A stretch of 6,502 bases of DNA from a virus (lineage: Duplodnaviria > Heunggongvirae > Uroviricota > Caudoviricetes), in the IMG/VR virus record IMGVR_UViG_2711768006_000011. One strand, given 5' to 3'. This document shows, piece after piece, positions 1 through 6,502 of this stretch (position 1 is the first letter of the stretch; every line of letters begins with the position of its first letter). A model generated the notes under the pieces. The model was given only the letters and a program-made list of their open reading frames with translations, did no database searches and was not told where the DNA came from. The translations under genes were made by a program, and so were the position numbers.

Positions 1-84
1 TACAATCGTCAGCGTCGTCACTCTCGTCTGGGGAATATCTCCCCGGCAGCCTTCAGGGAAAAATATCATCAGATGGCTGCTTAA
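1..84 (+). CDS. IS3-family transposase (OrfB-like), C-terminal fragment; 5' part lies outside the window
   Basis: Open frame from the window edge to TAA at 82-84; conserved integrase-core C-terminal motif as above. Confidence 0.6.
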   Translation, partial: YNRQRRHSRLGNISPAAFREKYHQMAA

Positions 85-127
85 AAAAAGAACAAATGGT
101 AGTGTCCGCTATTGCCAGTACACCTCA
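1..127 (+). mobile_element. IS3-family insertion sequence, right end (partial; element continues beyond the window)
   Basis: Positions 1-127 are the exact reverse complement of 6376-6502. Frame 1 encodes a transposase C-terminus ending YNRQRRHSRLGNISPAAFREKYHQMAA with stop at 82-84, matching the YN..R.HS.LG..SP..F tail typical of rve/DDE integrase-core transposases. The terminus ends in CA at 126-127, and read inward the terminal sequence TGAGGTGTACTGGCAATAGCGGACAC resembles IS3-group inverted repeats. Exact IS identity not assigned. Confidence 0.65.
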
Positions 128-525
128 GGATAGCGGTCATGTGATGCCGGTTTCCCGGTAACTCAGCACCGGTATCTGAGTCAACGTTTTCTCTACTGGG
201 TCATTTCCGATACGCCCTGCCTGCTGACAGGCTTTCATCACATCTGAAAATATAGCACCCTGACTGATACTGTAGTACCTAAGGTTCCAGAAACTGTGAT
301 GTATCCGGCACAGAAAAGCCCCTCCGGAGAGGGCTGGAGAGTGGCGCTATGTGCCATTGCATGATGCCGGGTGCCTCCCGGTGAATTCAGTACCAGCACC
401 TGAATCCGCGATTATCCCATATACCTACTCGCTGATTGCCCCTCCGCACAGGGGGATTCACCATGCCAGTTTCTTTTAACAAACTCCCCGCAAAACAGAC
501 AACTGTCAACCGTCTGAATTGTGAG

Positions 526-744: not shown

Positions 745-1803
745 TCATCCGTTCTGGCTGACTAAATCCTGTACTTCCCGAACCGTCTGCTCAAAACGTT
801 CAGTCTCCAGCTCAACGCCAATTGCACGACGCCCGAGCGCCAGTGCCGCTTTCACTGTCGAACCCAACCCCATGAAAAAATCTGCAATCAGGTCACCCGG
901 ACGACTGCTAGCGCTGATTATCTGCTGCAGCATTTCTGCCGGTTTTTCGCACGGATGTTTCCCGGGATAGAACTGCACCGGTTTATGCGTCCACACATCG
1001 GTATACGGCACCTGCACCGTCACGCCAAAATACCGCCGCAGATGTTTATATTCACTCAGCAGCTCCGCATACTGCCGGTTCAGTGAGGTATACGTATCCA
1101 CCAGCTGGTGGTGGAGCTTTTCCAGTTCACCACGCCGATGCTTCTCTTCTGCCACCCGGGCAAACAGCGCCTGTAATTTCAGATAATCGCTTTCATTCGG
1201 CAACTGCCACTGACCGGCACTGAACCAGTGCGACACCATGTTTTTCTTTCCTGTGGCATCTGCAATCTGTTTTGCCGTTATCCCCAGGGCAGCTCGCGCA
1301 TCACGAAAGTAAGAAATCAGCGGGGCCATCACATGCTGTTTCAGTGCACTGCCCTTCGCCGCATACCCGGCATCTTTCGGACGATACGGCCCCTGATAAT
1401 GTTCCGCGAACAGAATGCGCTCTGTGGCGGGGAAATACGCCCGCAGGCTTTCCTTGTTGCATCCGTTCCAGCGTCCGGACGGCTTCGCCCAGATAATATG
1501 GTTCAGCACACTGAAGCGTTCACGCATCATGATTTCGATATCAGATGCCAGGCGATGACCACAGAACAGGTAAAGACTTCCGGCAGGTTTCAGCACCCGC
1601 CAGAACTGCGCCAGACACTGGTCCAGCCACTTCAGGTAATCATCGTCGCCCTTCCACTGGTTATCCCAGCCCTCAGGCTTCACTTTAAAGTACGGCGGGT
1701 CCGTGACTATCAGGTCAACAGAATTTTCGGGTAACGACCGGATAAATTCCAGGCAGTCGGCGTTGATTAACTCACAACTGGATATTTTTACAGTATTAAG
1801 CAT
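745..1803 (-). CDS. Orphan DNA N6-adenine methyltransferase, beta-class (motif IV DPPY near the N-terminus, motif I FxGxG-like FFMGLGST near the C-terminus)
   Basis: 352-aa ORF. LIVTDPPY at residues 31-38, a central insert with a helix-turn-helix-like stretch (ITAKQIADATGKKNMVSHWF), and PGDLIADFFMGLGST near the C-terminus. No restriction endonuclease gene is adjacent. Weak Shine-Dalgarno, so the start is probable rather than certain. N4-cytosine specificity cannot be excluded from sequence alone. Confidence 0.85.
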   Translation of the reverse strand: MLNTVKISSCELINADCLEFIRSLPENSVDLIVTDPPYFKVKPEGWDNQWKGDDDYLKWLDQCLAQFWRVLKPAGSLYLFCGHRLASDIEIMMRERFSVLNHIIWAKPSGRWNGCNKESLRAYFPATERILFAEHYQGPYRPKDAGYAAKGSALKQHVMAPLISYFRDARAALGITAKQIADATGKKNMVSHWFSAGQWQLPNESDYLKLQALFARVAEEKHRRGELEKLHHQLVDTYTSLNRQYAELLSEYKHLRRYFGVTVQVPYTDVWTHKPVQFYPGKHPCEKPAEMLQQIISASSRPGDLIADFFMGLGSTVKAALALGRRAIGVELETERFEQTVREVQDLVSQNG

Positions 1804-1835
1804 GGATCATTAAGCCTGTCTCTGATAGGCTCATT

Positions 1836-1854
1836 CTGCTTTTGCGCAAAGCAG
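1836..1854. promoter_or_regulatory. 19-bp near-perfect palindrome CTGCTTT-TGCGC-AAAGCAG in the methyltransferase leader; candidate operator or RNA hairpin
   Basis: 7-bp arms at 1836-1842 and 1848-1854 are exact reverse complements; about 30 bp upstream of the methyltransferase start. Confidence 0.35.
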
Positions 1855-1895
1855 TGGGCCTGAGGTTTGCTTGTGAACCCAACGCATGAGCAGAT

Positions 1896-1926
1896 GGCTG
1901 GTGGGTGCCCCTAACACCCACCAGCC
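1896..1926. repeat. Perfect 12-bp inverted repeat with 7-nt loop (GGCTGGTGGGTG / CACCCACCAGCC); each arm contains a Chi octamer, giving a convergent Chi pair
   Basis: Arms at 1896-1907 and 1915-1926 are exact reverse complements. GCTGGTGG at 1897-1904 on the plus strand and at 1918-1925 on the minus strand. Confidence 0.8.
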
Positions 1927-1940
1927 GCCCATTTACCACA

Positions 1941-1967
1941 AATAAAAAAGCCTTCACTGCGGAAGGC
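1941..1967 (-). terminator. Rho-independent terminator overlapping the stop codon of the 65-aa ORF
   Basis: Minus-strand RNA GCCUUC-CGCAGU-GAAGGC followed by UUUUUUAUU; 6-bp GC-rich stem plus U tract. Confidence 0.75.
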
Positions 1968-2375: not shown

Positions 2376-3197
2376 TTACCTAGTTACCTTTTTTAACTGC
2401 CGCTCAGCCCATGCTTCTTCAATATCAAACCGGGTCACCAGCGCATCATAAAATTTCTTAACTGTTTTTTCCCATGACGCGCGTGTTATCTGGTTTGTCA
2501 CCTCGCATATAGCATTAAATGCCTCCGTTGATGGTAGTCTTTCATAGCCACGACCACCACAACGCTGGCAGTCTCTGATAACAGGCATACCACGTTTTAC
2601 CGACTCTTCACGATGAATGGCGACACCACGCCCACGGCAATCCTTACAGGCGGTGGAAACCTCACCCTTTCCGCCACACTCCGGACAGGCAACTTTTACC
2701 ACCTCCCTGACTTTTTTCCATTCTTCCCAGTAAGACGGATACACACCTTTCGTACACTTTGCCCATACCGGCGGCTTACCATCCGGATACTGGATCTTGT
2801 TTGTAAAAACCTCGCTTTCAATAAATTTTTTTCCGTGACAGCAGGGGCACTGTTTTTTGCTCGCCGCGCTACGGGCATAATCTTCAAACGCATACGAAGC
2901 CATAATACGCATCACTGCCGGTTTTATTTCTGCCGGGAGTTTTCTTAACGCCGCCACGCGATCACACCGACTGAGTGCATATTCTGTCAGCAATTCTGTT
3001 GCCCGCTCTCTGTCATTCATACTAATGCCCATTTTCCCAAGGAACGCAGAAACCCCCATCTCAGCCCGATTCTGTGTCATGCCCTGCGCGGCCATCACAT
3101 CAGTGATACTCAGCGCATCTTTCGACGTTGAGGCCGATGCATCAGTCAGGCCGGGGGATTTTGGGGAGTAGTATTTCGGTAAATCTTCCAGTTTCAT
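2376..3197 (-). CDS. Q-like late-gene antitermination protein with four CxxC zinc-knuckle motifs
   Basis: 273-aa ORF. Motifs CPCCHGKK, CPECGGKG, CKDCRGRG and CQRCGGRG. Start ATG overlaps the rusA stop (ATGA). Sits immediately upstream of the promoter and terminator cassette and downstream of rusA, the canonical lambdoid position for Q. Family assignment from memory of quuQ-type proteins. Confidence 0.7.
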   Translation of the reverse strand: MKLEDLPKYYSPKSPGLTDASASTSKDALSITDVMAAQGMTQNRAEMGVSAFLGKMGISMNDRERATELLTEYALSRCDRVAALRKLPAEIKPAVMRIMASYAFEDYARSAASKKQCPCCHGKKFIESEVFTNKIQYPDGKPPVWAKCTKGVYPSYWEEWKKVREVVKVACPECGGKGEVSTACKDCRGRGVAIHREESVKRGMPVIRDCQRCGGRGYERLPSTEAFNAICEVTNQITRASWEKTVKKFYDALVTRFDIEEAWAERQLKKVTR

Positions 3198-5110: not shown

Positions 5111-5142
5111 AAAATAAAAACAAAAACCCGCCGAAGCGGGTT
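5111..5142 (-). terminator. Rho-independent terminator with UUCG tetraloop, 3' of hok
   Basis: Minus-strand RNA AACCCGC-UUCG-GCGGGUU followed by UUUGUUUUUAUUUUC. Confidence 0.85.
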
Positions 5143-5210
5143 AAGTGTGGGTGCATTGAGGATGCCTGCCCCATCAGAGGTGGCGAGGGATTTCTCCCCC
5201 GCCTGGTCTC

Positions 5211-5366
5211 TTACTCCTCAGGTTCGTAAGCTGTGAAGACAGCGACCTCCGTCTGGCCGGTTCGAATTCGTACCTCGCAGAGGTCTTTCCTCGTTACCAG
5301 TGCCGTCACTATGACGGTTAAACAGATGACGATCAGGGCGATTAACATCGCCTTTTGCTGCTTCAT
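5211..5366 (-). CDS. hokD: Hok/Gef-family type I toxin (HokD/RelF-like), 51 aa
   Basis: MKQQKAMLIALIVICLTVIVTALVTRKDLCEVRIRTGQTEVAVFTAYEPEE has the hydrophobic helix plus conserved RKDLCEV..R.G..EVA.F.AYE core. ATG at 5366 is preceded by AAGGAG at 9 nt. The tool frame extends in frame to ATG 5423 (70 aa), which I treat as an upstream in-frame extension, not the toxin start. Confidence 0.9.
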   Translation of the reverse strand: MKQQKAMLIALIVICLTVIVTALVTRKDLCEVRIRTGQTEVAVFTAYEPEE

Positions 5367-5542
5367 AGCCTGCTTCTCCTTGCCTTTCGGCACGTAAGAG
5401 GCTAACCTAGATTTGCCGTTCATAGATTGAGCCTCAGATTAATGTTAAGCGTCTTGCCGGACGCGTAATGTTAACTGGGGCTTTTCTCTATCTGCCTTTT
5501 GGTGTTCATGCCTGAGACAGATAGCCTCAAGCACCCGCTGCA

Positions 5543-6375: not shown

Positions 6376-6502
6376 TGAGGTGTACTGGCAATAGCGGACA
6401 CTACCATTTGTTCTTTTTTTAAGCAGCCATCTGATGATATTTTTCCCTGAAGGCTGCCGGGGAGATATTCCCCAGACGAGAGTGACGACGCTGACGATTG
6501 TA
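6376..6502 (-). mobile_element. IS3-family insertion sequence, right end (partial), inverted relative to the copy at 1-127
   Basis: Exact reverse complement of 1-127; transposase C-terminal fragment at 6419-6502 on the minus strand. Confidence 0.65.

Follow-up and report, generated by a model that had tools for sequence, protein, structure and literature searches.

This analysis concerns a stretch of 6,502 nucleotides (nt), referred to here as the window, from IMG/VR virus record IMGVR_UViG_2711768006_000011 (Caudoviricetes), in which a DNA methyltransferase gene is preceded by a perfect 12-base-pair (bp) hairpin, P1, and, closer to the gene, by a short palindrome, P3. We find that this segment is a conserved, undescribed control region preceding a toxic phage DNA methyltransferase gene, and we hold with moderate confidence that the hairpin and the palindrome are elements of a composite leader that limits and times production of the late enzyme, a role and a mechanism that we infer. 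What the analysis demonstrates directly is conservation, covariation, two alternative pairings, the genes around the leader and the statistics of Chi. The coding direction is the minus strand for every gene in the window, which covers the late-control region of a lambdoid prophage, and the hairpin and the palindrome therefore lie in the untranslated leader of the methyltransferase, a non-coding segment of about 140 nt (about 1804-1945) whose transcript is the minus strand. The original prediction, made from the window itself, had proposed a stem that is no simple terminator, an operator-like palindrome and a regulatory leader, and these parts stand, the regulatory role of the leader as a putative one; its further proposal of a Chi pair serving RecBCD does not.

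The methyltransferase matches Pfam N6_N4_Mtase and is 95% identical to the enzyme of phage 1720a-02, which has been named as very similar to M.EcoGII (PMC5778455). M.EcoGII itself methylates adenine non-specifically; it stays silent in the lysogen, and its constitutive expression is harmful (PMC5778455). The assignment of the enzyme to the M.EcoGII family is indirect, being made via the 1720a-02 enzyme, and its specificity is a predicted one.

The upstream regions of methyltransferase homologues were taken regardless of the presence of a leader from 80 species-level genomes, 80 close Escherichia coli viral contigs and 80 Providencia-like viral contigs, and a covariance model aligned 85 leaders, 79 of them distinct. 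Pairwise identity is 0.66-0.78 in the leader, compared to 0.64-0.85 in the methyltransferase coding sequence and 0.26-0.48 upstream of about position 1950. We regard the leader as part of the methyltransferase module because it is conserved like the coding sequence, with identity falling upstream of about 1950. The leader of about 140 nt was present in Escherichia, Salmonella, Klebsiella, Enterobacter, Citrobacter, Buttiauxella, Mixta, Erwinia, Morganella and Providencia, and a shorter form was found in Xenorhabdus and Photorhabdus. No Rfam (15) family matched the window or a consensus-type leader at the gathering score, or at permissive thresholds; the only overlap in the window was P26, at 24 bits against a threshold of 36 (plus strand), and the best score for the consensus-type leader was 19 bits against 44. 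The small RNAs AgvB, AsxR, STnc100 and Pas were considered as identities of the leader and rejected, as those RNAs sit downstream of transfer RNA (tRNA) genes. A gapped DNA pattern search of viral contigs gave chance matches only, and the covariance model gave no hits in those 666 kb of contigs, which serve as a specificity control. A protein-alignment search of the viral contigs recovered near-identical E. coli relatives only and was used for allele frequencies, not for diversity.

The evidence for selection on structure is clearest in P1. Its two arms, 1896-1907 (GGCTGGTGGGTG) and 1915-1926 (CACCCACCAGCC), are 12 nt each and 100% complementary around a 7-nt loop, so that the predicted perfect hairpin with a Chi octamer on each strand is confirmed. 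When its conservation in homologous prophages was checked, as had been proposed, the stem was kept in all 79 distinct leaders, each with at least 10 of 11 pairs; 98% of its positions are paired, and six pairs covary. Relatives replace the Chi-bearing stem with GACUGUAA/UUACAGUC, GACAGUG/CACUGUC, GACCGAUG/CAUCGGUC or GACCGUUGACAG/CUGCCAACAGUC. In most leaders P1 is interrupted halfway by an internal loop, and the uninterrupted 12-bp stem of the window is a minority form. Among 78 close E. coli relatives, 39 carry the perfect stem with both Chi octamers and 36 carry the C>T variants CACTCACCAGC or CACCTGCCAGC, which destroy the plus-strand Chi and leave G·U pairs in the minus-strand transcript; CACTCACCAGCC is a natural allele of the hairpin segment. 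Judged from these sequences, P1 is a stem-loop kept by selection on base pairing and not by Chi. Nor is the stem a simple terminator, in agreement with the earlier view: no U tract follows it (the next sequence is AUCUGCUC on the minus strand, the strand of the transcript, and GCCCAUUUAC on the plus strand), and the terminator scan reported only the stems at 2295-2276 and 1967-1950, with none at 1896-1926. The second of these, which had been recognized as a terminator at 1941-1967, is real and lies on the minus strand, 3' of the stop codon of a 65-amino-acid open reading frame (ORF), where it forms the upstream border of the conserved leader, with identity dropping there from 0.62-0.78 to 0.26-0.48. 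The features of the region, in the order of transcription, are as follows.

1941-1967, minus strand: intrinsic terminator-like hairpin from the terminator scan, with its stem at 1950-1967, a T run to 1941 and the tail TTTTTTATTT.
1936-1941, minus strand: conserved GUGR(A)AA motif (UUGUGG in the window), the 5' strand of helix S1, pairing with CACAA at 1871-1875; S1 is 98.9% paired in the 79 leaders.
1927-1932, minus strand: AUGGGC, of which UGGGC is the 5' strand of helix P0, closing a three-way junction; these bases also serve as the 5' strand of helix S2.
1915-1926, minus strand: P1 5' arm, GGCUGGUGGGUG, carrying the conserved Chi (1918-1925).
1908-1914, minus strand: P1 loop, not self-complementary and variable among the aligned relatives.
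1896-1907, minus strand: P1 3' arm, CACCCACCAGCC in transcript sense; its complement is the plus-strand Chi, which is not conserved in the leaders of relatives.
1866-1895, minus strand: helix P2, with arms at 1885-1895 and 1866-1875 and a loop at 1876-1884 that holds a conserved GRUCAC.
1855-1859, minus strand: P0 3' strand, GCCCA, from the alignment.
1836-1854, no strand: palindrome P3, CTGCTTT-N5-AAAGCAG, a candidate DNA dyad or operator with half-sites GCTTT/AAAGC.
1811-1833, minus strand: hairpin P4, UGAGCCU...AGGCUUA, beside the translation start, with a conserved CUAUCAGAG in its loop.
1801-1809, minus strand: UGAUCC-AUG, an atypical Shine-Dalgarno-like UGAUC and the methyltransferase start codon, from the alignment.
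745-1803, minus strand: M.EcoGII-family beta-class N6-adenine DNA methyltransferase gene (Pfam N6_N4_Mtase), 352 amino acids, start codon 1803-1801.

The exact Chi octamer, 5'-GCTGGTGG-3', occurs in P1 at 1897-1904 on the plus strand and at 1918-1925 on the minus strand, and the two had been proposed as a convergent pair that would serve RecBCD entering from either side. The comparison of relatives does not bear this out. A transcript-strand Chi is present in 60 of the 79 distinct leaders, both octamers in only 10, and none in the remaining 19, in which the hairpin persists nonetheless; the pair was found in 3 of 42 species-level loci and, among close relatives, in 39 of 78. Wide conservation is restricted to the minus-strand Chi. 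A bidirectional recombination signal or RecBCD-attenuation signal, selected as a pair, could draw on the exactness of both octamers and on the roughly 40-fold excess of Chi in the window (10 copies against 0.23 expected from dinucleotide shuffles, none of 200 shuffles reaching 10). It could also draw on a second back-to-back pair, CCACCAGCTGGTGG at 1098-1111, that is conserved in many relatives, and on deletion variants that end exactly at the Chi arm. However, single C>T changes remove one copy in half of the close relatives, and the Chi octamers of the 80 species-level loci are biased in strand, with 186 in the late sense and 39 on the other strand (same-composition octamers average 7.5). 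This bias points to selection in one direction, as published (PMC12315714). We therefore find the paired signal barely credible, and the model is largely refuted by conservation. The Providencia-like contigs carry 93 late-sense Chi and 18 on the other strand. The second pair is a palindrome within the methyltransferase coding sequence (codons for HHQLV), and it occupies the same position, about +600 from the start, in many relatives, with 37 sense and 15 antisense Chi in 70 loci.

The two octamers of P1 are better understood separately. In Chi-rich lambdoid phages, the late-region Chi are co-oriented, the late-sense orientation is active and the opposite orientation is inactive (PMC12315714). 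The octamer at 1918-1925 has the late-sense orientation, like 186 of the 225 Chi of related loci, and the one at 1897-1904 has the opposite. The first thus belongs, besides being a stem arm, to the many co-oriented Chi of a late operon rich in them, and it is plausibly a working Chi, since it is oriented like those of related loci in the direction reported to be active; RecBCD that enters from the cos-proximal end may respond to it. The plus-strand octamer is a by-product of perfect stem complementarity. A close published setting is the class of Chi-rich lambdoid phages without a Rec module (LLS class; Zheng, Casjens, Davidson, Amundsen and Smith 2025, PMC12315714), in which exact Chi is clustered at the right (late, cos-proximal) end, nearly all in the late sense. 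The type phage of that study, LLS (locus L007 in our set), has this very leader, with the transcript-strand Chi. The study addresses Chi density and orientation and describes no hairpin, inverted Chi pair or leader. In contrast to that class, the stem here is kept without Chi in 19 of the 79 leaders; the region of the Rec module lies outside the window.

P1 is embedded in a larger predicted structure. The 145-nt leader folds with -60.6 kcal/mol on the minus strand (z = -3.96 against shuffles) and -61.3 kcal/mol on the plus strand (z = -5.04), so the folding check proposed for the minus-strand leader gave a structure more stable than shuffled sequences. Taking all helices over the 79 leaders, 87% of the alignment cells pair, compared to 83% in shuffles (none of 500 reached the observed value) and 35-41% in controls with slid strands. 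Double changes occur in 18 pairs, and P1 and P2 carry most of the covariation signal. P2 has five pairs with double changes (CG/UA/AU, GC/AU, UA/CG), but only 75% of its cells pair on the transcript strand. P0, S1 and S2 show mostly invariant pairs or one-sided variation: P0 (UGGGC/GCCCA) is 99.7% paired with one compensatory change (L017), and S2 is 97.0% paired, L232 having a compensatory change. A scan of every column against every other was uninformative, as the division into two main clades produces spurious covariation in many columns.

The helices of the leader can be arranged in two ways. S1 is formed by the GUGRAAA motif with UCACAG, and S2 by AUGGGC with GCUCAU or GCCCGU, and together they extend P1 into a long hairpin. 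These two helices are 97.9% paired, compared to 26-52% for slid strands, with clade differences absorbed by transcript-strand G·U and two compensatory changes. The arms of P2 double as the 3' strands of S2 (1886-1891) and S1 (1871-1875). On the transcript strand, the long hairpin (S1, S2 and P1) and the three-way junction (P0, P1 and P2) are mutually exclusive. The two folds are predicted to be near-isoenergetic on that strand (-32.6 vs -30.8 kcal/mol on average), and in 29 of 79 leaders the long hairpin is the more stable of the two. The short Xenorhabdus and Photorhabdus leaders keep only the long-hairpin theme, covarying, with transcript-strand G·U in 36 cells vs A·C in 10, and the Xenorhabdus leaders have an S1-like hairpin, GGUGAAAG/CUUUUCACC. 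The UGAUC-AUG of the translation start lies in neither fold. Pairing between the P2 loop (GRUCA) and UGAUC is possible; its four core pairs (72-75 with 151-154) could form in 96-99% and its two outer pairs in 77-82%, with no double changes. A helix between the 5' arms of P2 and P4 (GCUCAU/GUGAGC) was considered and rejected, because the alignments, inspected by eye, show no compensatory changes in it and no conservation in Morganellaceae.

The palindrome, P3, behaves differently from the helices. Its arms, CTGCTTT (1836-1842) and AAAGCAG (1848-1854), are 7 nt each and 100% complementary around a 5-nt loop, which confirms the predicted 7+5+7 arrangement. In the relatives, the half-sites GCTTT/AAAGC are constant and the center is self-complementary in every lineage, although it changes (GCGC, TGCA, CGCG, TCGA, GTAC). 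This check supports the earlier suggestion that the palindrome is operator-like, since dyad symmetry is maintained through the changing center. As an RNA hairpin P3 is weak (-3 to -7 kcal/mol). A hairpin loop needs no palindromic center but a site for a dimeric protein does, and P3 is consequently a candidate DNA operator, best read from its sequence as a putative dyad for a dimeric protein. The consensus operators of LexA, CRP and other host regulators do not appear to fit P3.

Beside the translation start, the GATC and ATG of the methyltransferase are invariant or nearly so in the leader alignment. The UGAUC that precedes the start codon, which contains GATC, is not a canonical Shine-Dalgarno sequence; it is complementary to the 3' end of 16S ribosomal RNA (rRNA). 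The stretch at 1774-1809 (minus strand), which includes the first 30 nt of the coding sequence, is the most conserved of the region (0.85 pairwise identity). Read on the plus strand, the P4 loop gives TGATAGGCT, an extended -10-like motif.

We propose that the leader and the M.EcoGII-family methyltransferase gene form one module in the Q-dependent late operon of lambdoid phages and prophages, in which the composite leader would keep the cell-damaging enzyme low and timed to late lytic growth. Control would be exerted mainly by RNA structure on the late transcript, acting on translation or on the fate of the messenger RNA (mRNA), perhaps as a switch between the two folds. A protein might bind at P3 and act at the DNA level, P4 and the putative ribosome-binding sequence UGAUC abut the start codon, and the conserved Chi may serve the phage's known RecBCD strategy. 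Several observations weigh against this proposal. The predicted folds do not clearly sequester the start region. Variation in S1 and S2 is almost wholly one-sided (two double changes) and P0 is nearly invariant, so that support for the switch consists mostly of conserved complementarity. The 79 distinct leaders fall into few clades, so that counts over them exaggerate how many events are independent. The scans found no promoter in the leader, which leaves the operator role of P3 without a partner promoter. Finally, the mismatches of P2 on the transcript strand are A·C in 162 cells and G·U in 5 (A·C there being G·U on the plus strand), and the plus strand gives the more stable P0-P1-P2 core in 71 of the 79 leaders.

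The last two observations would favour an antisense RNA or a function on both strands, and the evidence on strand is mixed. An RNA made from the plus strand would be a cis-antisense RNA of about 135 nt folded as a three-way junction (P0', P2', P1'), and its pairing with the leader would silence leaky methyltransferase mRNA in lysogens by analogy with type I toxin-antitoxin systems, OOP and sar. Besides the bias in P2, Providencia-type P1 stems retain one A·C mismatch and the L232 change in P0 is also A·C. The core reaches -38.9 kcal/mol on the plus strand compared to -35.0 kcal/mol on the minus strand, RNAalifold gives a clean three-way junction on the plus strand, and there the junction always beats the alternative fold (-38.0 vs -27.8 kcal/mol). 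A TGNTARGCT motif is conserved on the plus strand, and Providencia phages carry a TTGACA-16-TATTTT site on the opposite strand over the methyltransferase start (codons 2-11), where about half of the leaders have weaker versions of it. However, this promoter is not consistent: the Morganella leaders and the window lack the Providencia-type site, other scans found none, and sigma-70 scans of both strands of the leaders of the window, L016 and L083 gave no site, with one antisense site in L175. There is no terminator either, only GCCCA followed by 2-5 U, and the length is variable. The transcript strand, in turn, is favoured by the G·U pairs of P1 in the E. coli clade, of S1 and S2, of P4 (G·U 96 vs A·C 23) and of the short Xenorhabdus and Photorhabdus leaders. 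Part of the A·C bias of P2 is explicable without an antisense function because the P2 arms must also pair with the G/U-rich partners in S1 and S2, which limits them to C/U and A/G. We consider the plus-strand RNA unlikely, and the same holds for the silencing it would bring about, yet it is a live rival of the proposed leader.

A control region that works mainly at the level of DNA, with P3 and perhaps other dyads as operators for a dimeric protein that would repress or activate a methyltransferase promoter, appears rather doubtful to us. The perfect central symmetry of P3 with five different centers and constant half-sites, which an RNA loop does not require, speaks for it. Candidates for the protein are the 65-amino-acid winged-helix-like product of the upstream ORF, the methyltransferase and some host factor. 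The upstream ORF matches a TrmB-type winged helix weakly (E = 0.0026, short of the cut-off) and is so annotated in one RefSeq genome. Yet no promoter-like site lies nearby, phage LLS keeps P3 although its upstream ORF is replaced, and the non-palindromic loops, wobble pairs and internal loops of P1 and P2 fit RNA and not sites in duplex DNA. A combination of these elements, in which a bistable mRNA leader, a constitutive plus-strand antisense RNA with a three-way junction and a P3-bound protein would keep the methyltransferase silent in lysogens until Q-driven transcription releases it, is a speculative model to which we give little credence. If true, it would be a circuit resembling type I toxin-antitoxin systems that guards a DNA-modifying enzyme; M.EcoGII also methylates RNA, and in a variant of the model the enzyme might feed back on its own leader. 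It is very unlikely, in our view, that the fold is decided by a leader peptide translated from the AUG in AUGGGC (MGGWWV..., with two Trp codons inside Chi) in an attenuation-like manner. The AUG is present in 78 of the 79 long leaders and is preceded by GUGA, complementary to the 3' end of 16S rRNA; both lie within the partner-switching strands, and NCBI annotates a tiny ORF there in one genome (L253). However, the length and frame of the ORF vary (7, 16, 18, 31 and 33 codons), loop indels shift the frame, and L232 (AUA) and many Xenorhabdus leaders have lost the AUG. In addition, GGC GGC UGG UGG does not vary at its synonymous positions, which argues for constraint at the nucleotide level. 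In the window this mini-ORF (AUG GGC GGC UGG UGG from 1930-1932, minus strand) has 33 codons, and in most relatives it has 7 (MGGWWVL).

The proposed composite leader has features in common with several known systems. In phage Mu, the toxic gene mom, which serves DNA adenine modification, comes last in the late operon, and its translation is gated by an mRNA stem-loop and Com. The methyltransferase resembles mom as a late, cell-damaging DNA-modifying enzyme with a small ORF upstream and a structured leader by the start codon. Unlike in Mu, there is no similarity in sequence or structure, the 65-amino-acid ORF is not zinc-finger Com-like and not always present, and no promoter control of the Dam/OxyR type was seen. 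As in lambda cIII mRNA, bistable leaders and riboswitches, a phage mRNA leader has two exclusive, conserved pairings of similar stability; unlike these systems, the leader has no Rfam match (the Lambda_thermo and SAM/SAH riboswitch families were among those searched) and the start is not obviously in either fold. The palindrome upstream of a methyltransferase, with a small helix-turn-helix-like ORF before it, recalls the operators of the controller (C) proteins of restriction-modification systems. Here, however, the methyltransferase is an orphan, non-specific enzyme in a late operon, no C-box or promoter was found and the small ORF is not always linked. The stable multi-stem fold predicted opposite the leader of a toxic gene is like the cis-antisense RNAs of hok/sok, lambda OOP and P22 sar, but no conserved promoter or terminator was found and the RNA is here a sequence-based prediction. 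By sequence, the leader is not a member of the Mu mom/com, cIII, C-protein operator or antisense RNA systems.

In minus-strand order, the window contains hok/sok, a DUF968 gene, rusA, the Q antiterminator gene (2376-3197), a tR'-like terminator (2295-2276), the 65-amino-acid ORF (1954-2151), the terminator at 1967-1950 with its T run, the 150-nt region and the methyltransferase (745-1803), followed on its 3' side by a masked N run and an STnc100 small RNA. A matching order (Q, tR'-like terminator, 65-amino-acid ORF, terminator, leader, methyltransferase, tRNAs) is seen in SfV, mEp460, phiP27 and Stx2 phages, and also in phage LLS and in Klebsiella and Morganella phages. The 65-amino-acid ORF, between tR' and the leader, is poorly conserved, and phage LLS has another gene in its place. 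ARAGORN found no tRNA genes in the window; the N run (526-651) covers the site at which relatives have tRNA-Ile/Arg/Arg genes (ileZ/argN/argO), and the sequence just past it (652-700) resembles the terminal part of a minus-strand tRNA gene. STnc100 matches strongly at 306-495 (minus strand, 123.6 bits) and weakly, as a second copy, at 79-267 (minus strand, 21.8 bits), downstream of the masked tRNA region, which is the 'moron-site' position of small RNAs described for prophages of enterohemorrhagic E. coli. At 5211-5536 (minus strand), a hok-family toxin ORF (70 amino acids, with a Hok-like peptide) adjoins a sok antisense RNA match (112 bits), and a terminator-like element at 5121-5202 is weakly similar to isrK. 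The ends of the window (1-127 and 6376-6502) are perfect 127-nt inverted repeats that read like the 3' end of an IS3-family transposase gene with its terminal repeat, suggesting a prophage segment flanked by two inverted copies of an insertion sequence.

Variants that lack the methyltransferase were also found. In two E. coli prophages without the methyltransferase and tRNA genes, homology stops exactly after the Chi-bearing arm GGCTGGTGGGTG (L251, 2500-2512; L253, 2452-2512, where NCBI annotates a 15-amino-acid ORF). In L252 (2380-2570), the methyltransferase has given way to a helix-turn-helix gene; the junction falls in the P2 loop, and the remnant is decaying by C>T changes.

The M.EcoGII-type enzymes methylate almost every adenine and are silent in lysogens, and how prophages keep them off has not been described. 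The leader is a concrete, testable candidate control element for such an enzyme, present across Enterobacterales prophages and absent from Rfam. The analysis also brings a caution, in that a striking 'Chi pair' can arise merely from the perfect complement of an RNA stem arm that contains Chi. The leader helps in reading the late regions of Stx phages, as many relatives have the stx genes immediately downstream, and it may find practical use in the controlled expression of the widely used M.EcoGII-type enzyme.

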